DNA of 64,000 nucleotides from positions 1-64,000 of the IMG/VR virus record IMGVR_UViG_3300031992_000067. One strand, 5' to 3'. The notes under the pieces are model-generated. The model was not told where the DNA came from, did no database searches, and was given only the letters and a program-made list of their open reading frames with translations. Below, one piece after another: positions 7,572 to 21,425 of this stretch. The stretch's first letter is position 1, and each line of letters starts with the position of its first letter. The translations under genes were made by a program, and so were the position numbers. This DNA is from a virus. Lineage: Duplodnaviria > Caudoviricetes.

Positions 7572-8120
7572 ATGACACCGTATCAGACAGGTTTTTTGAC
7601 AAAGTGCGCCACGCTTGGCGTTCCGGACCACGTGGCCGGGCGTCTGTTGAAACTCGCGGAAGGCGGGTCCGACCCCAACCTCCAAAAGGCCCAGCAGGTG
7701 TTCCAGGAGTGGCTCACCACGAAGAAGCACGTAGTGCGCCGTGGTGAGATACTCACCGGAATAGCCCGCAAGGAAGGTGTCACTCCTGAAGAGATAATGG
7801 AGGCCAACAACCTGCCATCCATAACGGCAATCAAGCCTGGCCAGGTGCTTAAGATGCCCAACGGGCTTGGAAAGCCGAAATCCCAAAAGAAGGCCGAGTA
7901 CAAGACGGATTTGGATTCGCCTGTATGGGGAGATCTGGGCTACAAGGTGCACAAGGGGCGGTATTTTCCGTTTCTGTTCCCTAGCCAAAGGTGGCTGACT
8001 GTTCCGCAAGGCGCGACATACGGTTCGGTGTCGAAGCTGTTCGGAATACCGCAGGAAACGCTTACGACTTTGAACCGCGGCAAGGAACTCCAAGCCGGCG
8101 GTGTCATGCGACTAAGATAG
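7572..8120 (+). CDS. LysM-domain protein with shared MTxYxxGFxTKCA leader
   Basis: HVVRRGEILTGIARKEGVTPEEIMEANNL..IKPGQVLKMP and TVPQGATYGSVSKLFGIPQETLTTLN..LQAGGVMRL are two LysM repeats. Confidence 0.8.
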   Translation: MTPYQTGFLTKCATLGVPDHVAGRLLKLAEGGSDPNLQKAQQVFQEWLTTKKHVVRRGEILTGIARKEGVTPEEIMEANNLPSITAIKPGQVLKMPNGLGKPKSQKKAEYKTDLDSPVWGDLGYKVHKGRYFPFLFPSQRWLTVPQGATYGSVSKLFGIPQETLTTLNRGKELQAGGVMRLR

Positions 8121-8132
8121 TGGGAGGACGTC

Positions 8133-8501
8133 ATGCCAGCGGTATCTGAAAGTCAGCAGCGGTTGTTCGGAATGGTGCACGCCTATCAGAATGGGAAACT
8201 AAAGCACGCCCCTGCCAAGATAAGGCGTATCGCGAAACGCATCTCAGAAGAGGACGCCGAGCACTTCGCCAGGACAAAACACGACGGTCTTCCGGAAAGA
8301 AAGAAAAACGAAAGTGAAAAAGACGCTTCGTCAAATCAGCCAGTCACGGTCAAGATAGGCAAGAAAGTCTTTACCTTCCCATCCAAAAAGTCTGCGTTGG
8401 TATACCTTTCGGCATTGCCTGGGATACCACATATAAAAGCCAGGCGGGCCCTTGAAGGCAACGAACCAAGCATAGGGAACGTACTGCTTTACTACCCCTA
8501 G
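8133..8501 (+). CDS. DUF3008-like protein
   Basis: MPAVSESQQRLFGMVHA...EDAEHFARTKHDGLP matches the DUF3008-type motif common in large phages. Confidence 0.65.
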   Translation: MPAVSESQQRLFGMVHAYQNGKLKHAPAKIRRIAKRISEEDAEHFARTKHDGLPERKKNESEKDASSNQPVTVKIGKKVFTFPSKKSALVYLSALPGIPHIKARRALEGNEPSIGNVLLYYP

Positions 8502-9316
8502 GCTCTGGCAAGCGCCCGTTCACGCAGCGTCTTGTCCTTTTCATGGTCGTTGTACCCCATGTATTTCTGCGGTATGTGGTACAAGTGCTGATGTCCGGAT
8601 ATCGACACGCCTATATGGGCGAACGCGATGTGATCCCCGTAGTGGACCTGCGTCTCCCATCCGACCGGCCATGCGACGAAAGGCGGTTTTGACCCGTAGT
8701 CTGTCTTCATGTTGTACTTCTGCGCCGCATACCGTTCCACGACCGCCGGTTTGGCGTTTTCAGGGTATTGTCCGACAAGGTCGTATATCTCCCGCGTTAT
8801 TATGGCCACCTGGTTGTTGAACGTGAACATCTGGCGATCGGCGGAGGCTATTCGCCACAGGTCCGGGTTCGCGGTCACATCGTTGGTGTCGTTTGGGAAT
8901 CTGACGAGCTCGTGCCGCTTGCGGAACATCATCCCCATTCTCAAGGACCCGATTCGCAGCCGGTCCATCTTGTCCATCCACGGCCCTATGTCCAGATCGA
9001 ACTTAAGAAGCCAGTCGTCCTCGATCCTTAAGCACTTCGTCGCCGAAGGGTCGGAAAAGGCGTCCTGCAGGCCAAGGTTCATGACGGCGCCGAGACCGTG
9101 GCGATTTGGGGCCGTGACGTGTACCGATGGCCGTATCCCATGTGCGCGATACACTCTTAAAACCGCCTCTACATGGCCGGGCTCGGACATGTCGTCGCAC
9201 AGGATGTGACGCTGTTCCCAGCCCGTGGACTTGAGATGCGAGAGAAGAGCCTCGACCGTCGCGCAGGCGCAGCAGGTCCGGTTCCTGGTGAACAGAACTA
9301 CGGGCAGTGTGTTCAT
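8498..9316 (-). CDS. Glycosyltransferase, GT-A fold (family 2-like)
   Basis: VVLFTRNR, ILCDDMS, GLGAVMNLGL, RIEDDW (DxD-like) motifs. Confidence 0.75.
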   Translation of the reverse strand: MNTLPVVLFTRNRTCCACATVEALLSHLKSTGWEQRHILCDDMSEPGHVEAVLRVYRAHGIRPSVHVTAPNRHGLGAVMNLGLQDAFSDPSATKCLRIEDDWLLKFDLDIGPWMDKMDRLRIGSLRMGMMFRKRHELVRFPNDTNDVTANPDLWRIASADRQMFTFNNQVAIITREIYDLVGQYPENAKPAVVERYAAQKYNMKTDYGSKPPFVAWPVGWETQVHYGDHIAFAHIGVSISGHQHLYHIPQKYMGYNDHEKDKTLRERALARA

Positions 9317-10950
9317 TTCGTTATCCTGAGCATGTTTCCGATCATGAGGCCTGTACCTGGGTCTCCGGCGTATCTTTGCCTGGCGTTGGCGGGCGTAAAC
9401 GTCAGTTCTCCAAGATACGGTTTTCCATCAAGCTCGAAGAAGTCCACCCGCACAAAGTCAAACGGCTCGGACAGCCTGGATGCGTACTCCCTCATCAATT
9501 CAAACGATTTCGGCCTTTGGTGCATTACCGACCGGTTGTTCCTTATGTAGTCAAGCCGGCATATGTCGACGAACTTGAAGTCCATGTCATAGTAGTTGAG
9601 AACCGCATTGCGTGTTCCCGCCCCCGATACCACCTGGCAGTATGCCGGAACCCCGTTGAAGCATATGAACTTGTAGTCGACAGCTTCGTTTCCGTTGTTT
9701 CCTCCTACGTGCTTCTCCGCAAAGGCCCTTCTCGGTATTTCGTGGTATTGCAGTTCATATCCTTTGAGCGCATAGTCCTCGGACAGCCATTTTTTTATTT
9801 GCCCCACCGCCCATGCCTTGTCAAGCCTCGACTTGTCCCCCACTATGATGTTGTAGTGTGAGCCGTGGTTGCATTTGAGCGCGAACCTTTCGGGAAGCCT
9901 TGAAAAGTCAATCTCGTCTCCCGACCTGTACACGGCTATTACCGGCACGCAGATGTCAACGCCCAGCTTTTCGCGTGCGTAGTCCTTTACCTGAAGCTTG
10001 TCGGCGCACCTTGTCATTTCAGGCTTGATCCCGAACAGCTTTATATGGGCGATCTTTTCCTGTATTGTGCGCGGGTTGCCGATGAAATCTCCATGCACGT
10101 ATCCCTTGGTGAAGGCTATGGCCCTGTCGCGCAGCGTCGGTGTCGGTGTCGCCGTCGGCGTCGGCGTCCTGCCATGTGCCGCGATCTCCGCCACGACGGC
10201 GTCTTTCTCCGGGGTGCGCTCGTTTATCTTGTAGAACTCGGACAGCTTGTTGCTGTACTTGTTCCAGTCGTCGCCACGGCCAAGTTTGCATCGTGCAAAC
10301 TCCTCTATGGTTTTCGTGCGGTAGTGGTTGACTCTGGCCATGTGCCACGTGGCTGGTCCGGCGTTTTTTTCCATGAAGCACTCGCATGGCCGGCCCAGCG
10401 TGTCGCACGCCCTCACCCCGGCAGCCCCGTGACAGCTGAACTTGTACGGCGCGCACGACCCGCGTACAAAGCTTTTGCACTCCCTGTTTTCATTGAATTC
10501 CAGAGGCAGCGGCGTTTTAAACCTTTCAACCACCGGCCGGCTGTCGCGCCGTACAAGCCCGCAGTCACCGAATATGCGCCAGTGAAGCCTTATCTCATCA
10601 AACCCGCGGTACCTGGCGTCGGAGAGGAATTCGTCCAGCGACACGTCGGCGTCCACGAACTCGTCAATGTCGAAAAAACCAAACCAGTCAAACTCGTGGC
10701 GCAGCCTGTTGAACGTGTCAAGATACGCCCGGCACTGTACAAACGACCTCACTCCGACGTATTTCTCGTTAACCTCGCAGAAGTCGCCAAGCCCGAACTT
10801 GTTTACAGCGGACTTAAGCCCCGGCATGTCATTGTTGTCGAACACCACTGCTTTCCGAAATCCAAGTCCGATGTAGTGTTTGAGCCATTCCTCGATGTAG
10901 TCGTTTTCGTTTCTGGCTATCGCCACTACGCATTTTCTAAGTCCGTTCAT
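9313..10950 (-). CDS. Glycosyltransferase (GT2/GT92-like) fused to TupA-like ATP-grasp domain
   Basis: Start ATG 10950 after GGAG; AIARNENDYIEEWLKHY..GF, FFDIDEF, NHYRTKT; (TP)n linker; ADKLQVKDY, FALKCNHGS, DYKFICFNG, FVRVDFF..GELTFTP. Confidence 0.85.
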   Translation of the reverse strand: MNGLRKCVVAIARNENDYIEEWLKHYIGLGFRKAVVFDNNDMPGLKSAVNKFGLGDFCEVNEKYVGVRSFVQCRAYLDTFNRLRHEFDWFGFFDIDEFVDADVSLDEFLSDARYRGFDEIRLHWRIFGDCGLVRRDSRPVVERFKTPLPLEFNENRECKSFVRGSCAPYKFSCHGAAGVRACDTLGRPCECFMEKNAGPATWHMARVNHYRTKTIEEFARCKLGRGDDWNKYSNKLSEFYKINERTPEKDAVVAEIAAHGRTPTPTATPTPTLRDRAIAFTKGYVHGDFIGNPRTIQEKIAHIKLFGIKPEMTRCADKLQVKDYAREKLGVDICVPVIAVYRSGDEIDFSRLPERFALKCNHGSHYNIIVGDKSRLDKAWAVGQIKKWLSEDYALKGYELQYHEIPRRAFAEKHVGGNNGNEAVDYKFICFNGVPAYCQVVSGAGTRNAVLNYYDMDFKFVDICRLDYIRNNRSVMHQRPKSFELMREYASRLSEPFDFVRVDFFELDGKPYLGELTFTPANARQRYAGDPGTGLMIGNMLRITK

Positions 10951-10960
10951 ATCGGGTCTC

Positions 10961-13009
10961 CTACCATGGAAAGTCCTGCGCGGCCATCTGCCTGGCGGCG
11001 TCATACGCGTCGCGGGCCTCCTGCACCACCAGAGACCTGGCCCTTGCCTTTGTGTAAGGCTTGACGAACTTCTCGGAAAGCACGTCTGGGGCCGCCATGC
11101 ACAGCGCCATTACCGCATCCCACCGTTTTCTCACCGACGCATTGTTCCAGCCGCTCAGCTTGTTGTCGCTCATGTACCGTATGAACGGAAACGACGTATG
11201 CGCCACGCTGTCAACCGAGTCGACTTGCCTTAGAAATTGAACAACGTCGTTGGCCATGCGCCTGTCAGGGATGAATCGGCACACCTTTTCGGACTTAGTC
11301 ACCCTGGTCCACGGGGCTATGGCCTGCTCGCGTGACATCTGCTCGGGATTGCGGGCGGTGAATTTCCTGGTATGGCCGCTTTTATCGAAGACGAATGCGC
11401 ACAGCATGACGTCCGGACGGCCGTTTTTTTCAATCTCGGCCGCCAGATTCGCCATTGAACGCCGGTTGTACAGCACGTCGTCGGAGTCGAGAAACACAAC
11501 GTAGTCGCTCTCAACACCTAGGTCAAGCGCCGTGTTTCTGGCCCCTCCGGCCATTGTGCGGCTTTCATTTCTCACAAACGTGACAAACCCGTATCTTGCG
11601 CAAGCCGAGCGAGCCTCATTGGACTCGTGTTCATCGGAGGCGTCATCCACCACGGTCATGGAGATTCTTGACATGTCGAACTCCTGGGACGCCACGGATT
11701 CAAGACACCGCTTCAGCTGCCCGGAACTGTTGAAGAACGGGGTCACCACGTGAAACGTGACTCCGGAACCGCCGTACACGGGCGTTGCCTGCGCCGTTGT
11801 TGCATTTTCCATGTCGTTTTCACCAACCGCCACGGCGTGATCGTCTATAAGCAGTTTTCGCCGTTCCAGCACTGCGTCCATGGACGATGACAGCGGTCTG
11901 ATCCGCCTGACGACCCTGTTAGGCTTTATCCAGCTGTAGACATGTGGAACCACATACATGTCTATGCCCGTATCCAGCAGGTATTTGGCCACAAGCTCAT
12001 CGTCACCCGTGTTTTTCGCAGTCTTGAACTGGTCGAACGACAGACCTATCTTACGCGGCATGCAGCAGCTTGTGGCATTGCCCGGCACAGATACCTTCAC
12101 AAACGATGTGCACGTGCGCATAGTCGACTCATATCTCGCGGCCTTAGACACGTCGAGCCGGCCGTCCCTGCCCATTTGGTATAGAACGCCTTCACACGAT
12201 ACAAACGCCCCGCCGTCGAACTTCGCGCATCCAGAAACCATTTTAGCCACATAATTCGCCGGGTATAGCCAGTCATCGTCCACGGTCAGGAAATAGTCGT
12301 AGTCGCCGCACAAGTCAACGGCCCGGAACTTATTCTGGCATCCCAGGTCGTCCTCCCCCGCATAGGCCTTTGGAAACACGTTTTTATATGGCTCAAGACG
12401 CCTGAGGACCTTTGCCAGCCTGTCTCCCTCGTACTCGTTGAGCGCGACGTGCATTTCATCGCACTGCGGTGAAATCGCCTTCACTACGGCCATCATGCCA
12501 TCTTCACGGGCGGGGTATGAGGCCAGCCCCACTATGACACGGCTGTGCGTTTTAGATGTCCTAGATCCGGTATCCGCGGTTTGCACGGTGGTGTCAACGG
12601 CAGTTGGTTTAGGCTGGCCTGAAGCCTCTCTGAGACTCCCCGCGGTAAACGAGAAGCTGCCTCCTTTGGCTATCTTGTCCAGCACCTCTTCCGACATTGG
12701 CTTTTCAACAGCTTGGAAATGCTGCGAGAACGCATACGACATGCCTGGTTTCGGAGCCCCTTTCGCGGCCATGACGTGGTAGGCCTTTGGCATCGGCGAG
12801 CACACCACTAGGTCGTCATCGTCGAACCTGCCAAGCGTCTTTCTGAGCGAAGCCATGTCGGCGACCTTGCAGTCTGCCCGCACCGACCCGCTGAAGTACT
12901 TGGAAACCACTATGGTAACCTCGAACTTAGCCTCCCTCATTTTTTGCAGGCAGAACGACTGCGACATCTGCCCCATTCTATCCGCGACCAGCACTCCTAT
13001 TGTCTTCAT
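10961..13009 (-). CDS. Multi-domain glycosyltransferase (two GT-A-like domains)
   Basis: VGLASYPARE...FLTVDDDWLYP domain and VVTPFFNS..VVDDAS..GGARNTALD..VFLDSDD GT2 domain. Confidence 0.8.
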   Translation of the reverse strand: MKTIGVLVADRMGQMSQSFCLQKMREAKFEVTIVVSKYFSGSVRADCKVADMASLRKTLGRFDDDDLVVCSPMPKAYHVMAAKGAPKPGMSYAFSQHFQAVEKPMSEEVLDKIAKGGSFSFTAGSLREASGQPKPTAVDTTVQTADTGSRTSKTHSRVIVGLASYPAREDGMMAVVKAISPQCDEMHVALNEYEGDRLAKVLRRLEPYKNVFPKAYAGEDDLGCQNKFRAVDLCGDYDYFLTVDDDWLYPANYVAKMVSGCAKFDGGAFVSCEGVLYQMGRDGRLDVSKAARYESTMRTCTSFVKVSVPGNATSCCMPRKIGLSFDQFKTAKNTGDDELVAKYLLDTGIDMYVVPHVYSWIKPNRVVRRIRPLSSSMDAVLERRKLLIDDHAVAVGENDMENATTAQATPVYGGSGVTFHVVTPFFNSSGQLKRCLESVASQEFDMSRISMTVVDDASDEHESNEARSACARYGFVTFVRNESRTMAGGARNTALDLGVESDYVVFLDSDDVLYNRRSMANLAAEIEKNGRPDVMLCAFVFDKSGHTRKFTARNPEQMSREQAIAPWTRVTKSEKVCRFIPDRRMANDVVQFLRQVDSVDSVAHTSFPFIRYMSDNKLSGWNNASVRKRWDAVMALCMAAPDVLSEKFVKPYTKARARSLVVQEARDAYDAARQMAAQDFPW

Positions 13010-14625
13010 TCACCCTCCTTGATTGGTTTGAGCTTTAGCGACCCGCATTTCACCGGTTTTCCAAGCTCAACGGGTTCAGATTTTTCAACACGGCAGTTTT
13101 CAGCCAGCTTCGACACCACGTCTCGCCACGCGAAGCCCGCCACGGTGTAAAACGCCACATACGGGCTGAGCCCAAGTTCAGAATACGCTTTCTGCACCAC
13201 TGATCTCATCCTGTCCGCTACAAGGTCTTTCCAGGCCATTCTCACTGAAACGGCGGGGAAACCCCCTCTGGCGGTCACAGTACACTCAAACATCTCGTCG
13301 TCCCCGGACATTCTTCTGGAATCCACCGACAGCCCCACATTTGCCATCGGCTCCCTGACCCCGTTCATCTTGACGGCGAACACCCCGTCGGGGCCGCAGT
13401 GAAGGGTGCGACCGTTGGCCAAGGCCACGTTGCTCGGCTCTCCGCAGTCCGACGACCCCAGAAGTTCCGTCAGTTTTTCCGCCGGCTCCGAGTTCCCGCC
13501 GAATCCGCCACGTATGGCAAGCTGTGTCTCCGCCGTGGACTTTATGAGGTTCCTGACGACCATTGGCACCTGCACGGAGTCGAGCACGGACAGGACTTCC
13601 GCGCCTTTGCCGTCGGACACCATGGACGCAAATCTCTTGGCCACCATGTACTGCAGGTCATTGTACCTGGCCTTGGTCGCCTTGAAGTCGGATATGTCGT
13701 CATACCTGAGCGAGTCGACGGACGATCTCCAGTCAACCGCCCTTATCTCCGGGGCGCGACCGGCCTTTATCTCCGGCGCCGACAATGTCTCGAGAAGGAA
13801 CTCGGTCGATACCGGGGCGTCAGCCGTTGACAGCAGGTCGATTCTCGTCGTGTTCCTGAACGCTTCAGGCAGCGGGTAGCCATGGAACGCCACGATCGGC
13901 GGACGGCGTGTTGAGCCTGATCCATGAACGGCCCACAGCTTGGCGGCCACCTCCGGCCTTTCAACGGCCAGCACCCGTTCACCTATGTCGGCCGACGCCT
14001 CCCCGAACACGCCGGTGTCAGGGTGCGTCACGACCGCCATGTATCTGAAACTGGGGTTGGCTGGGTCTAGCACCTCTATGCGAGTCACTTCCCCGGACAT
14101 GGTGAACGGGTACAGTATGAAAGTAGATTTACGGTACTTTGGCTTCGTAAGCTCCCTGAGGCATCTTGGCACACCCGAATCCAGGAACAGCCCGACTTCA
14201 GGGTGGAGAAGCCTGAGGTTGTTGAGGGACATGCCGGTTCTGACACCGGCTTTCTCCGGCTGTCGTCTGAGGGCCCTCACGCATCTGGCCAGATATGCTT
14301 TCAGCACCGTTTGAGCGTCTGCCTCCTCGAAATACGCTTCGACGTCGGACGCTAGAAGCGGTTTCAACATGCAGTCTTCAAGTTCGCCGCCTTCAGCGAA
14401 TAAGCCCACGGCCTCCGAAAGTGGAATATCCCTGGCCAGCGACACAAGCGCAGCGGCGTCGCCTCGGAACCGGCAGACCGGATGCGCGCACGAAAACACG
14501 ACTTCGGGTCCTGGAGACGCGGAAAGGCACATGTCCCCGTCGGAGTGGAGAGGGCATCTCCATTTCCCGTCGAGACACTGCGCAGACCCGAGGTGTTTCA
14601 GAAGCTTGTCAGGCGAGACGTTCAT
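13006..14625 (-). CDS. Hypothetical protein with N-terminal zf-CHC2 (primase-type zinc-binding)-like domain
   Basis: WRCPLHSD...FSCAHPVCRFRGD...LSEAV; no Toprim acidic motifs recognised downstream. Confidence 0.6.
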   Translation of the reverse strand: MNVSPDKLLKHLGSAQCLDGKWRCPLHSDGDMCLSASPGPEVVFSCAHPVCRFRGDAAALVSLARDIPLSEAVGLFAEGGELEDCMLKPLLASDVEAYFEEADAQTVLKAYLARCVRALRRQPEKAGVRTGMSLNNLRLLHPEVGLFLDSGVPRCLRELTKPKYRKSTFILYPFTMSGEVTRIEVLDPANPSFRYMAVVTHPDTGVFGEASADIGERVLAVERPEVAAKLWAVHGSGSTRRPPIVAFHGYPLPEAFRNTTRIDLLSTADAPVSTEFLLETLSAPEIKAGRAPEIRAVDWRSSVDSLRYDDISDFKATKARYNDLQYMVAKRFASMVSDGKGAEVLSVLDSVQVPMVVRNLIKSTAETQLAIRGGFGGNSEPAEKLTELLGSSDCGEPSNVALANGRTLHCGPDGVFAVKMNGVREPMANVGLSVDSRRMSGDDEMFECTVTARGGFPAVSVRMAWKDLVADRMRSVVQKAYSELGLSPYVAFYTVAGFAWRDVVSKLAENCRVEKSEPVELGKPVKCGSLKLKPIKEGE

Positions 14626-14633
14626 TTACTCTT

Positions 14634-14662
14634 TTGCTTGCAAAGCAGATTTGTGCTACAAT
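14634..14662 (+). promoter_or_regulatory. Sigma70-like promoter with extended -10
   Basis: TTGCTT-17 nt-TACAAT with TG at the extended position; in the divergent intergenic gap. Confidence 0.55.
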
Positions 14663-14713
14663 GAGTATAGCATATTTGGATTCCTTGTGTGTAAAACCAG
14701 ACAAAGGGGTGCT

Positions 14714-15997
14714 ATGGACATCACTGACGATACTCTACATTCAACGCTGCTTTACGTCTGCAAGGCCGGCAAGGCCCCGGACTACGTTCTGGACGCGAAC
14801 CCGAACGGCATGAGCAAGGAGGCTTCCGAGAAGCTTCCCGACACTCTGTTCGCGGACCGTGTGAACAGGCGTTATCCGATTGACTCCAAGGCCAGCACAT
14901 GGCTGTCGGCGGCGTACTTCGCCAAGACCGCCCAGGACGACAACTACTCGTCCGGCCTTATGAGGAAGATCGTGGAGAAGACCATCAAGCTGGCTGCAGA
15001 CCGGTATGGCATCCGCAAGGACGTCGACGAGGTCATGGACCTCATGTCCCGCAAGCCGGCTGAGAAGAAGGCGGCTGACGACGAATCCAACTATGGCTGG
15101 CCGTCCGAGAAGAAGTACCCCATGTTCGACGAGCACGGGGTTAAGATGGCCAATAGCTATTTCGCGGAAAACTGCTTCAATTATCCGCCCGAGATGAGGC
15201 GCACGATTGCGGAGCGCATCTTCCAGAAGTGTGCGGAATATGGTGTCGAGGCCAACGACACAGTGCGCCGCGAGGCCGGGCAAGGCTTCAACCTGCGCGA
15301 GGATGTCGGCGTGGAGCTTATGGACCGGGTGAAGATGGCCAGCCATACCAGCCCTGAGGTTGCAGGGGCAATGGCCAAGGCCGCGTCGGCCCTTATGCTG
15401 ATGCCGATGTCGGGCTACCAGGCCAATATGCAGAAGTTCGCGTCGCTTCTCGATTCGTTCGATGAGGCCATGGGCTTCGACGACCAGTATGGCCGTCGTT
15501 TCCGCTCTCCCATGGAGATCCTTCACTCCAGGAACGTCAAGGAGGCCCAGGCCTTCATGGACGACTCCGTGCAGCTCGGTGACGCCCTGTTTAGCATCAC
15601 CAAGCTGGCGGGACTCCCGATGGATTTGTTCACCTCCGCCCTGGGGGACGGATTTGGTGACATGATTCGCGGGTGTGATGGCGAGTCCTGTGGTCATATG
15701 AAGGCCATGCGCATCACTAAGAAGGTTCCGGGTGGGATGATGCGCATCACGATTTCCGGCGGCATGCCCGATATGATGGACGGCGGGTTCGGTTTTGACT
15801 CGGACAAGACGCTTGACGCGGAAGACGCCGAGTGCAACCCGGAGGAATGCGAGAAGGCCGAGGAACCCAAGGAATCCGAGGAGGATGGTGGAGAAGAGGG
15901 TGTCATTGACGTCAAGAAACTCGGCAAGGCTTTGAAGGCGCTGCCGGAGCGCGACAGGAACGCGCTCCGTAAGGCGATCGAACTGTACATGGACTAA
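14714..15997 (+). CDS. Conserved-looking phage protein with two DUF6582-like repeats and an acidic tail
   Basis: ATG 14714; RRYPIDSKASTWLSAAYF...IKLAADRYGI and KKYPMFDEHGVKMANSYF...IFQKCAEYGV. Confidence 0.7.
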   Translation: MDITDDTLHSTLLYVCKAGKAPDYVLDANPNGMSKEASEKLPDTLFADRVNRRYPIDSKASTWLSAAYFAKTAQDDNYSSGLMRKIVEKTIKLAADRYGIRKDVDEVMDLMSRKPAEKKAADDESNYGWPSEKKYPMFDEHGVKMANSYFAENCFNYPPEMRRTIAERIFQKCAEYGVEANDTVRREAGQGFNLREDVGVELMDRVKMASHTSPEVAGAMAKAASALMLMPMSGYQANMQKFASLLDSFDEAMGFDDQYGRRFRSPMEILHSRNVKEAQAFMDDSVQLGDALFSITKLAGLPMDLFTSALGDGFGDMIRGCDGESCGHMKAMRITKKVPGGMMRITISGGMPDMMDGGFGFDSDKTLDAEDAECNPEECEKAEEPKESEEDGGEEGVIDVKKLGKALKALPERDRNALRKAIELYMD

Positions 15998-16689
15998 TGG
16001 ACCCTTTCCTTCAGCAATTCGGCCACGACACCTCGGACCCCTTCACGGTCCGGCAGGATCTCATCCAGTCGCCGGAGACAATGGCGACAGTGGTCCACGC
16101 CATAATCCGCGACAAGTACGGGGACGAGGCGTACTGGTGGGATCCGCTCACCGTGGCCCTCGAGCTCAAGGCCGACTTCCAGGTCGATCCGTGCCCGGAG
16201 TTCATGGACCGCTGGGGGGCCATGCAGGTCGTGATGACCGGGGACGCCTTCTTCAACCGCATAGACGCCTTCTTCGGTGTTTGCAACGCCCTCTCGGACG
16301 GCAACCCGTTCTTCGGCGCCTTCGATCCGGTAACGGTCGAGGAGGCCGCCTGGGCAGTTGCCGAGGTTGGCATGAACCGTGACATGCTACCGTTCTCACC
16401 GACCATCAAGAAGTACTGTTCCATCATACTGGAGAAGAACGGCTACGGGAAGGGGAACTTCCCGCCCATTTTCGACGTGGTGTTCGACGACGACACCACG
16501 CTCAAGGACATACGGGCAGGTCTGGTTTCGGACGAGAATGGAAAAGCCATACATCAGTACCTTTCGGAGAATGTCGACGACATCGAGAAGCAGTTCGACT
16601 CATTGGCCGACCTGAAGAACGTGGACGACGACCTGCTCAAGAAGGGTCTTATCAACGCGTTAAAGGAGAACCACAATGACAAGGTATGA
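15997..16689 (+). CDS. Hypothetical protein
   Basis: 230 aa, TAATG coupling, typical codon usage. Confidence 0.8.
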   Translation: MDPFLQQFGHDTSDPFTVRQDLIQSPETMATVVHAIIRDKYGDEAYWWDPLTVALELKADFQVDPCPEFMDRWGAMQVVMTGDAFFNRIDAFFGVCNALSDGNPFFGAFDPVTVEEAAWAVAEVGMNRDMLPFSPTIKKYCSIILEKNGYGKGNFPPIFDVVFDDDTTLKDIRAGLVSDENGKAIHQYLSENVDDIEKQFDSLADLKNVDDDLLKKGLINALKENHNDKV

Positions 16690-17176
16690 ACATGGGTTTA
16701 TGACCAAGTGCGCCGAGTACGGTATAGACGGCGTAAGTCTCCTTAAATACGCGCAGCAAGCGGCGGCACAGTCTCGACCACAACCGCAAAAGGGCGGATT
16801 TATGCGTAATCTGGCTGGCTTTGGCAAGGCCCTGGCCTGGACAAATCCACTTACGGCTCCAATTATGGCTGGAATGGCCGGCGCGAACTACCTGGGTCGA
16901 AAGATTAGGGGATGGACTGGTCAAGGTCAGCAACCTCAGTCGCAACAGCAACCTCAGTCGCAACAGCAACAACAGCCGCAGCCAATGGCACAGCCGGCGC
17001 AACAGCAACAGCAAAAGCCAAGACAATGGGCTGATCCCCGTGTATATGGCACATGGACAACTGCTCCAAAATTCGATTTCAAGAGCGTAAACACGGGCAA
17101 GCTGCGGGAAATAGCCTCTAAAAAGGGGTTCGGCTGGGAATCCGGGCCAGACCGTAGCCGCTGGTTTCAAATGTAA
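16676..17176 (+). CDS. Q-rich protein with shared MTxYxxGFxTKCA leader (possible internal virion protein)
   Basis: MTRYEHGFMTKCAEYGID...; 18-bp tandem repeat encoding QQPQSQ near 16928-16975. Confidence 0.7.
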   Translation: MTRYEHGFMTKCAEYGIDGVSLLKYAQQAAAQSRPQPQKGGFMRNLAGFGKALAWTNPLTAPIMAGMAGANYLGRKIRGWTGQGQQPQSQQQPQSQQQQQPQPMAQPAQQQQQKPRQWADPRVYGTWTTAPKFDFKSVNTGKLREIASKKGFGWESGPDRSRWFQM

Positions 17177-17194
17177 GATGTAAGGAGAACAACA

Positions 17195-17374
17195 ATGAAC
17201 GCACGCAGCAAAATCCTAGTTAAGCAGGCGCAGATGCTCGCCCTGCACAACAGGTACGTCAGGGCCATGAAGGCCGGGCAGCGCGAGATCCAGAAGATCG
17301 CGGCAGCCGAGCTGGCGAAACAGGCCATGTACCGCAAGGTATATGCCGGTCTTAAAAACCTCAGGAAAGGATAA
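17195..17374 (+). CDS. Small basic helical protein (59 aa, not in ORF track)
   Basis: SD AAGGAG; MNARSKILVKQAQMLALHNRYVRAMKAGQREIQKIAAAELAKQAMYRKVYAGLKNLRKG*. Confidence 0.7.
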   Translation: MNARSKILVKQAQMLALHNRYVRAMKAGQREIQKIAAAELAKQAMYRKVYAGLKNLRKG

Positions 17375-17377
17375 CCA

Positions 17378-17725
17378 ATGAGCCAGGACAAGATCATAGC
17401 AGGCGTCACAACCCTCATCGGGCTGGCGACGATGATTTTCGGGATGTCTCAGGAAACGGCTTCCGTAATCCAAGGCGCCGTACCTCAGGTTGTTGGAGGT
17501 GCAATGGCACTCTGCACGGTCATAACGTACCTCCGCAACCGCCAGAAGAACAAGGACCGTGAGTTCAACAAGCGCTCCATGATTTTCCAGGCGATGGTTT
17601 ACAGTGGTTCTCCCGTATCTGACAACGGGTCTGTACGATCCCCGGAAGAGGTGAAGCGCGTTGACAGCCATGTAGCCGAAGCTGCCAGAGCCGTATTTGG
17701 ACCTGATGCGTGTGCGCAGGATTAA
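17378..17725 (+). CDS. Two-TM membrane protein, holin-like
   Basis: IIAGVTTLIGLATMIFG and VVGGAMALCTVITYL followed by basic RNRQKNK. Confidence 0.5.
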   Translation: MSQDKIIAGVTTLIGLATMIFGMSQETASVIQGAVPQVVGGAMALCTVITYLRNRQKNKDREFNKRSMIFQAMVYSGSPVSDNGSVRSPEEVKRVDSHVAEAARAVFGPDACAQD

Positions 17726-17739
17726 CAGGATATACGCCA

Positions 17740-18366
17740 ATGACACCATACGAATACGGGTTTATAACAAAATGCGCCGAATACGGCATAGCTGAAGACG
17801 CCGCGCTTGAGCTTTTGAAAATGCGCGGTGGACTAGTCAAATCCGCCGCCTTAGCCAGATTCGGGTTTTCGCCGTCTGCCACGTATTCAAAAGTGATGGA
17901 CTTTGTCAAACGCACGTTTGGGCGCAAGGTACCTATATCCGGGATAAGGCGTAGCAACTATATCCGCGAACTTGTAAGCGGAAACCCCGAGTACGCGAAA
18001 CTGCGCCGCAAGCTTAACAGGGTTGAAAGGGTCAACTACGAAATAAGAAAGCGGAAGGCACCTATTCTGGACGAGCTTAAAACGCTTAACTATGAACAAG
18101 GCGTCATGGATGGCACTATAAATCCAAATCCGTTTCCGCGTGGTTGGTCCGGACGAGGGGACTTTGCGGATGACATCGTGGCCATACGTCCTGGAATAAC
18201 CAGGTCTAACATACAGTCAAAAATAAATGAAGCCACAGACAAACTGTGGAAACTCAGGCAGCACGAAGCCAAAGTCCATCCATATTACACAAAATACACG
18301 TCTGCGCTTGACAATCTTGAAAATTCAGCGTTTAACGCGGCTCCCAAGTACGACTACGTGTGGTAA
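17740..18366 (+). CDS. Hypothetical protein with shared MTxYxxGFxTKCA leader
   Basis: ATG 17740; MTPYEYGFITKCAEYGIAEDAALELLK. Confidence 0.75.
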   Translation: MTPYEYGFITKCAEYGIAEDAALELLKMRGGLVKSAALARFGFSPSATYSKVMDFVKRTFGRKVPISGIRRSNYIRELVSGNPEYAKLRRKLNRVERVNYEIRKRKAPILDELKTLNYEQGVMDGTINPNPFPRGWSGRGDFADDIVAIRPGITRSNIQSKINEATDKLWKLRQHEAKVHPYYTKYTSALDNLENSAFNAAPKYDYVW

Positions 18367-20598: not shown

Positions 20599-21372
20599 AT
20601 GCTGATTGACAAGATAAAGCTACTTTGGAACATGCTGGTGGGCAAGGCGAAGCTCACGAGCCGCAAGGACACCGCCGTGGTGTGCGTGGGCATGCAGACG
20701 TCGGCAAAGTACGGTGCATGCCCCGGCGCGCAGGTGGATTCGACGTCAATGGCTAGCAGGCTTGGAAAGTACGGGTCGGTTACGCTTCTGCAAAGCCGTA
20801 ACGCCACTACGACAGCCGTGTCAGAAGCGCTTAGAGGCGCTTTGGAGAAGGACCTTTGCATATTCTATTATTCCGGACACGGTGGCCAGCGTAGGGACCC
20901 GAAGGGGGAAAACGGCATGTCTGAGTTCCTGTGCCTGAACAACGGCCCGCTGCCCGACTACGAGATTTGGAACATGGTATCAAAGGCCAAGGGTAGGGTC
21001 GTGATGATATTCGACTGCTGCCACTCGGCAACCATGTTCAGGGAGGCCACAGCAAGCAGCGACGTGGAACAGCCAGAGGTAGTAAACCTCGGATTTCGGT
21101 TCAAGATGCTGGAAGGAGTGGCGACGGCCAGAGACAACTCCGAAGTGGAGGCAGCAAAGAGCCACGGCATCCTGGTGTGGTCCGGGTGTCCGGCAAATAG
21201 CTACTCATACGGGGACGACAACGGAGGCGTGCTGACCAACGGCATCAAAAAAGGCATGAAGTCAGGCGCCACGTACGACAGCGTGTGGGAGACGGCCAAG
21301 AAGGCCGCCAAGAGCCAAAACCCCGTGAGGACCGTCATCGGGTCAGGATTTGACGGACTTGTCTTCAGATAG
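20599..21372 (+). CDS. Caspase-family (peptidase C14, metacaspase-like) protease
   Basis: FYYSGHGGQ (catalytic His) and IFDCCHSA (catalytic Cys); WSGCPANSYS..GGVLT; SD GGAGG. Confidence 0.9.
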   Translation: MLIDKIKLLWNMLVGKAKLTSRKDTAVVCVGMQTSAKYGACPGAQVDSTSMASRLGKYGSVTLLQSRNATTTAVSEALRGALEKDLCIFYYSGHGGQRRDPKGENGMSEFLCLNNGPLPDYEIWNMVSKAKGRVVMIFDCCHSATMFREATASSDVEQPEVVNLGFRFKMLEGVATARDNSEVEAAKSHGILVWSGCPANSYSYGDDNGGVLTNGIKKGMKSGATYDSVWETAKKAAKSQNPVRTVIGSGFDGLVFR

Positions 21373-21395: not shown

Positions 21396-21425
21396 GGCCG
21401 TCCTTCGCAAGAGGGGCGGCCTTTT
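21396..21425 (+). terminator. Rho-independent terminator
   Basis: GGCCGTCCTTC-GCAA-GAGGGGCGGCC-TTTT. Confidence 0.85.

Follow-up and report, generated by a model that had tools for sequence, protein, structure and literature searches.

A portable N-terminal leader on unrelated proteins of an uncultured phage clade and its possible role as a capsid-loading tag

The stretch of DNA analysed here (the window) comprises bases 1-64000 of an 82,359-bp contig from an uncultured phage of the Caudoviricetes, IMG/VR record IMGVR_UViG_3300031992_000067 (CheckV completeness 55%). Three proteins encoded in it begin with the same short leader and then diverge. This leader is described below as a putative tag for loading proteins into the phage head. 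The three open reading frames (ORFs), which start at 7572, 16676 and 17740 on the + strand, all open with the leader that an initial annotation of the window had quoted, and only residues ~1-30 are common to them. A pattern and profile search of the whole contig found exactly three leaders, as that annotation had listed, plus a weaker internal match in a fourth protein, 14714. The leaders are located as follows:

7572..7661, + strand: leader (residues 1-30) of the LysM protein, gene 7572-8120
16676..16756, + strand: leader of a Gln-rich protein of 166 amino acids, gene 16676-17176
17740..17829, + strand: leader of a helical protein of 208 amino acids, gene 17740-18366

When the full proteins were compared pairwise by BLASTP, the alignments were limited to residues 1-30 (E 1e-5 to 1e-8), or to residues 1-50 for proteins 16676 and 17740. 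Beyond residue 32, BLASTP among the three proteins gave no significant match. Protein 7572 has a LysM domain at residues 53-96 (Pfam E 1e-15). The Gln-rich protein 16676 belongs to no family in Pfam or PHROG, and tblastn and pattern scans with the whole of protein 17740 returned no relatives. Two further properties are shared by the three proteins. The only Cys in each is C12 of the leader, and the net charge past the leader is strongly positive (+10 in 7572, +13 in 16676 and +14 in 17740).

At the DNA level the three leaders are only 66% identical. Synonymous differences are many, and conserved residues are often encoded by different codons. The DNA upstream of the three genes shows no alignment or conservation. 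The combination of synonymous divergence within the leader and the lack of conservation upstream argues for selection on the peptide and not on the DNA.

Searching 1.84 billion representative proteins (metagenome clusters) with a profile built from the three leaders gave 371 matches at E<=1e-3, a recurrence far beyond chance. Consensus and position statistics were taken from the best 150 of these 371 matches. The core motif lies near the N-terminus in 146 of the 150 and starts exactly at Met1 in 133 of those 146. The consensus reads MTRYEQGFLTKCAEYGV, followed by Asp or Pro, a spacer of two length classes, and LLKxA. Residues F8 and K11 are invariant and C12 is present in 145 of 146 sequences, while M1, T2, Y4, E5, G7, A13, E14 and G16 are nearly invariant. 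A motif resembling LLKxA occurs in 161 of 207 distinct leaders, its Lys being residue 24 or 27. In a few proteins the leader is present two or three times, or stands internally behind a DUF3008-type N-terminal module.

The leader is predicted with high confidence to be a small, self-contained helix-turn-helix ahead of a flexible linker. In an AlphaFold2 (AF2) model of protein 17740, built from an alignment of 150 sequences, a helix spans residues 3-14 and is followed by a turn, a second helix from residue 19 and then a low-confidence stretch. The predicted local distance difference test score (pLDDT) is 94-95 for residues 1-20 and 86 for residues 21-30. Helix 3-14 is amphipathic, and the linker after LLKxA is flexible and rich in Gly, Ala and Pro. 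On inspection, the consensus does not have the make-up of a Sec or lipoprotein signal peptide: there is no hydrophobic core, and the invariant Lys stands right before the Cys with no lipobox.

The leader constitutes a new, well-defined family that is in no catalogue; a capsid-targeting-like tag is in itself of a known kind. Searched alone, the leaders matched no Pfam family even at E<=10, DUF6582 (PF20223) included, and no family in PHROGs. No match was obtained by tblastn with the leader against 50,697 GenBank phage records, and a leader scan of 185,579 prokaryote genomes (one per species) found nothing. A word-based search with leader residues 1-40 recovered the query itself only, with a parent contig given as 190,627 bp, and an ESM Atlas search yielded weak helical look-alikes only. 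In the literature library searched, no mention was found of KCAEYG, DUF6582 or DUF3008. The unusual traits of the family are its 30-residue two-helix form, the single invariant Cys over Cys-free cargo, and a co-inherited caspase-like peptidase.

The tag is confined to one clade of uncultured myovirus-like phages of 143-190 kb, which is distant from its nearest cultured relative, Salmonella phage Arash. Four further leader-bearing IMG/VR genomes of 143-177 kb were identified (G001-G004), whose portals are 64-66% identical to one another. These have 11, 12, 3 and 6 leader matches, respectively, giving a range of 3-12 across the five genomes that include the window contig. The GC content of sampled regions is 57% in G001 and 37-39% in G002. 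Many short metagenome contigs contain tandem arrays of 2-5 tagged genes. The DNA of seven leader copies in G002 (L013, L016) is 92% identical, compared with 66% for the window leaders, a difference suggestive of gene conversion or recent duplication among the tagged genes.

The proteins behind the leader (the cargo) are highly diverse. The downstream parts of 212 tagged proteins form 145 groups that BLAST does not link, and 109 of the groups are singletons. Together with the unalignable remainders of the window proteins, this rules out simple paralogy of the leader proteins. The idea of a portable N-terminal module on unrelated proteins is thus borne out by the 371 clusters, in which the module mostly starts at Met1 and the cargoes are unlinked. 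Known cargo domains are few: Gly-zipper families, LysM, NMB0315 domain I, DUF3008 and one collagen-like protein. Cargo has a median length of ~165 residues and is rich in Gly, Ala and Arg. It carries a mean net charge of +7.8, with 92% of cargoes positive, against -2.5 and 42% for other small ORFs of the same phages. Cys is almost missing from cargo (16 of 32,135 residues, 0.05%, against a background of roughly 0.5-2.5%), and several of the 16 fall in proteins with extra leader copies. Since the Trp, Tyr and Phe content is near normal, disorder alone fails to explain the loss of Cys. Cys-free cargo would be in keeping with storage in a particle and passage through a narrow channel.

In G001, in G002 and in the independent contigs L023, L024, L028, L034, L039 and L054, tagged genes are interspersed among conserved head genes. 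The order of this head module is portal, a gene of 600 amino acids, two RNA-polymerase genes, genes of 627, 790, 129, 311, 446, 187 and 309 amino acids, a 470-amino-acid prohead-protease homologue, an acidic scaffold-like gene and the capsid gene. The 470-amino-acid protease-like protein had no match when its sequence was searched against the PDB. An orthologue of the LysM protein 7572 (49% identity) sits in the portal-proximal leader cluster of G001. In G001 and G002, the gene that directly follows the capsid gene (L008 2642-3043; L007 9588-9998) encodes a small protein whose N-terminus is loosely leader-like, with the stretch Phe-x-Glu-Gly ... Phe-Cys-Lys-Gln-Ala; this protein is not picked up by the leader profile.

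The head genes that flank the tagged genes are homologous to Arash gp204, gp206, gp216, gp218, gp220, gp222 and gp226. The Arash portal, two RNA-polymerase subunits, gp218, gp220, gp222 and the capsid protein gp226 have their homologues in the same order. Of the Arash proteins, the polymerase subunits gp206 and gp216 and the capsid protein gp226 rank with those most detected in particles (PMC10585845). The products gp218, gp220 and gp222 are labelled 'structural protein' in the Arash record. The tag, protein 14714 and the caspase were all searched for in Arash and are absent. The head module of the relatives includes the two genes for multisubunit RNA polymerase (L003 17-5146; L006 9480-15709). 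Their match to the Arash homologues most detected in the virion implies a virion-packaged polymerase in the clade.

A constant helical leader, a linker and hypervariable basic cargo, present in many copies within the head module, make up the architecture of the T4 internal proteins, and loading into the head is favoured for that reason. We give about even weight to the reading that the tag is a capsid-loading signal for internal or ejected, DNA-associated proteins, one that would work like the T4 signal and not be homologous to it. The features behind it are observed: the module, its spread, its position in genes, the properties of the cargo and the genomic setting. Under such a mechanism the leader would dock to one conserved component of the assembling head, which might be the scaffold core, the capsid interior or the portal. 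The docked leader would then carry its cargo into the prohead. There the cargo would stay with the DNA and possibly be ejected into the host, and the tag might be removed. Once ejected, the LysM and Gly-zipper cargoes would have the envelope as their site of action. A complex prediction of the capsid protein with leader residues 1-40 scored 0.00, which by the rule of the method counts neither for nor against binding. The LLKxA motif is real; its use as a processing site, which the initial annotation proposed, we can only infer.

The T4 tag has the sequence MKTYQEFIAE. This capsid-targeting sequence (CTS) attaches to the scaffold core, from which context the prohead protease cleaves it away (PMC9026906; PMC3012670), and its residues 4 and 7 weigh most for targeting (PMC9026906). 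Like the CTS of IPI, IPII, IPIII and Alt, the leader is a short N-terminal peptide on otherwise unrelated, diverse and basic proteins whose genes are hypervariable between relatives. Aromatic residues stand at similar positions in the two (Tyr4; Phe7 or Phe8), a resemblance and not a homology. The leader differs in being three times longer, in its two-helix hairpin and in its invariant Cys, and GenBank phages give no match to it. The head module of the clade is of the Arash type and not of the T4 type. In addition, no conserved Leu/Ile-x-Glu site was seen in the leader, whose packaging and cleavage are putative. The analogy to T4 internal proteins that had been drawn for the window therefore stands in part: the cargo is small, basic and hypervariable and is encoded in the head module of relatives, but the phage is not T4-like and its tag bears no homology to that of T4.

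In encapsulin cargo-loading peptides, bacterial-microcompartment encapsulation peptides and the C-terminal helix-turn-helix of the P22 scaffold, a terminal helix and a flexible linker bring unrelated cargo inside a protein shell. The leader is likewise a short terminal helical peptide with a linker. Its sequence and the shell concerned are different, and its binding to a shell is putative.

Several observations weigh against loading into the head. The three tagged genes of the window lie outside a recognisable head module, either after tail-fibre genes or in a block that runs from protein 14714 to the caspase, and the 82-kb contig does not include the head genes of the window phage. About one in ten matches has the module away from residue 1. 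These internal, repeated or C-terminal copies indicate that a free N-terminus is not required. No member of the clade is cultured and no GenBank phage matches, so the system is known from its genes alone. Finally, a role at the envelope, in lysis or exclusion, would account equally well for the LysM and Gly-zipper cargoes.

The block in which two of the window loci lie is a second, conserved setting of tagged genes, and contig L042 has the same block. Its two ends contain the following features:

15191..15283, + strand: leader-like helix-turn-helix in protein 14714, formed by the C-terminal helices of the second DUF6582 repeat
20599..21372, + strand: caspase-family (Peptidase_C14) gene, Pfam E 2.6e-15

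Protein 14714 (gene 14714-15997, profile match at 15224-15391) had been noted for an internal KCAEYG helix identical to that of the leader. The helix is indeed present. It is not a leader, but belongs to the second DUF6582 repeat, of which it is the last long helix. The first helix and turn of the leader resemble this helix of DUF6582 (PF20223), with an identical KCAEYG and the same hydrophobic spacing. The domain's beta-hairpin and first helix have no counterpart in the leader. The leader Cys is invariant, whereas the corresponding position is replaceable in the wider 14714 family (Cys in 27, Ala in 13 and Ser in 12). An hhalign comparison of the leader with protein 14714 aligned 12 columns only, at a probability of 64%. 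The AF2 model of protein 14714 places helices at 159-176 and 182-187. No other protein with the N-terminal half of DUF6582 and without the helix, as a split domain would require, occurs in the sequence examined.

Protein 14714 is a core gene in most of the clade and is 59-82% identical in G001-G003. KCAEY is invariant in four orthologues with this range of identity. The protein consists of two DUF6582 repeats (each a beta-hairpin and three helices), a helical middle domain, a disordered acidic stretch that contains Cys, and a conserved, basic C-terminal pair of helices. A Foldseek search of its model against the PDB found nothing meaningful and a PDB sequence search with it found nothing. The C-terminal pair is reminiscent of the coat-binding ends of scaffold proteins. 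A similar acidic stretch of Asp, Ala, Glu and Cys opens the scaffold-like protein beside the protease gene in G002 (L008 55-579). A role for protein 14714 as the obligatory receptor of the leader is unlikely, because G004, which is 95% complete and has six leaders, gave no match to it.

The caspase-family gene at the other end of the block encodes a candidate processing enzyme for the leader. An alternative to head loading starts from this enzyme: the leader may be a recognition or cleavage tag of the C14 peptidase, and cleavage C-terminal to a conserved Lys, either K11 or that of LLK, would free or activate the basic cargo, with or without packaging. Metacaspases cleave after Lys or Arg. The invariance of K11 and the common Lys at 24 or 27 would suit such an enzyme, whose His/Cys dyad motifs are intact and invariant in four homologues. 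The C14 gene occurs in every one of the five genomes with leaders, and Arash has neither the gene nor the leader. It overlaps the next leader gene in G001, overlaps or abuts leader genes in metagenome contig L030, and lies a few kb from leader genes in the window, in L042 and in G004. Against this, the five genomes belong to one clade, so that co-occurrence is not independent evidence. The gene is far from most leader genes in G002 and G003, and related caspases (38% identity) are found on viral fragments that show no tag, in records that are only 13-18% complete. For these reasons the linkage is suggestive only. The relatives also encode the conventional prohead-protease homologue, and no paper was found on a head-maturation role for phage metacaspases. 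Overall, we regard this alternative as unlikely.

Two observations concern the peptidase gene itself. The forms in G001 (L002 5653-6570) and L030 (1190-2110) have an extra hydrophobic N-terminal segment that is absent from the window form. A strong terminator-like hairpin follows the window gene at 21396-21421.

The invariant Cys of the leader, set against a cargo purged of Cys, might mark a chemical step. One form would be a covalent tether (disulfide or thioester) to a head component; the other would be cleavage by C14 beside Lys11-Cys12 or after LLK. Either would amount to a caspase-dependent, Cys-based loading and release of capsid cargo, unlike the head-maturation pathways described so far. 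We consider this a long shot.

A second alternative keeps the proteins in the virion and places them elsewhere than inside the head. The leader could be a plug that fixes interchangeable proteins to the portal, neck, tail or outer capsid, or that bundles them. The late and structural gene neighbourhoods are the same under this explanation, and one window copy follows tail-fibre genes. Repeated and internal copies also fit a binding or oligomerising domain. The cargo speaks against it: strongly basic, low-complexity, Cys-free proteins with a median length of ~165 residues are unlike adhesins or decoration domains, and one collagen-like cargo is the only exception. A plug of this kind seems improbable.

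In the third alternative the leader has no part in the virion and directs proteins during infection to the envelope or membrane of the host, where they would serve in lysis, superinfection exclusion or remodelling. The recognisable cargo domains act there (LysM, NMB0315 domain I and Gly-zipper/2TM, with ~15 family matches among 150 members), and 33 of 212 cargoes have a window resembling a transmembrane segment. Envelope-acting domains suit ejected proteins too. Inspection of the leader sequence finds it not hydrophobic and without the features of a signal peptide or lipobox, and in many independent contigs the tagged genes stand between portal, protease and capsid genes. We hold envelope targeting to be quite unlikely. 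That the repeat is a DNA-level recombination handle for swapping downstream cassettes, with a functionless peptide, finds some support in the G002 copies with their 92% DNA identity but is already disfavoured and very improbable, given the divergent window DNA with a peptide conserved through synonymous changes, the retention of the peptide across genomes with a sampled GC of 37% to 57%, and the Met1 position and invariant residues, which argue for selection at the protein level.

If the leader is indeed a head-loading tag, the proteins that are internal or injected in an entire clade of uncultured phages could be recognised directly by sequence. These would be hundreds of dark, fast-evolving, small basic proteins. 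The leader would also offer a compact handle of 30 residues for packaging foreign cargo into capsids. The pairing of an invariant Cys with Cys-free cargo and the linkage to a caspase-like peptidase are both concrete leads towards what may be a new chemistry of maturation.

Between the first two leader loci of the window, four minus-strand genes (8498-14625) interrupt the + strand late genes. The fourth gene of this block encodes a protein of 539 amino acids with a Cys/His-rich N-terminus and no family match. The gene next to the LysM leader gene is the remaining feature of the locus:

8133..8501, + strand: DUF3008-type protein beside the LysM leader gene; its start matches PHROG starts, and Pfam DUF3008 is below cut-off

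The first ~66 residues of this protein match the starts of several PHROGs of varied length, with E down to 4e-14. The DUF3008-type module, which covers ~60 amino acids from Met1, is a second portable N-terminal tag. It stands ahead of the leader in three representative proteins (P0009, P0056 and P0087) and occurs as a hypothetical protein in 157 records of T4-like cyanophages.

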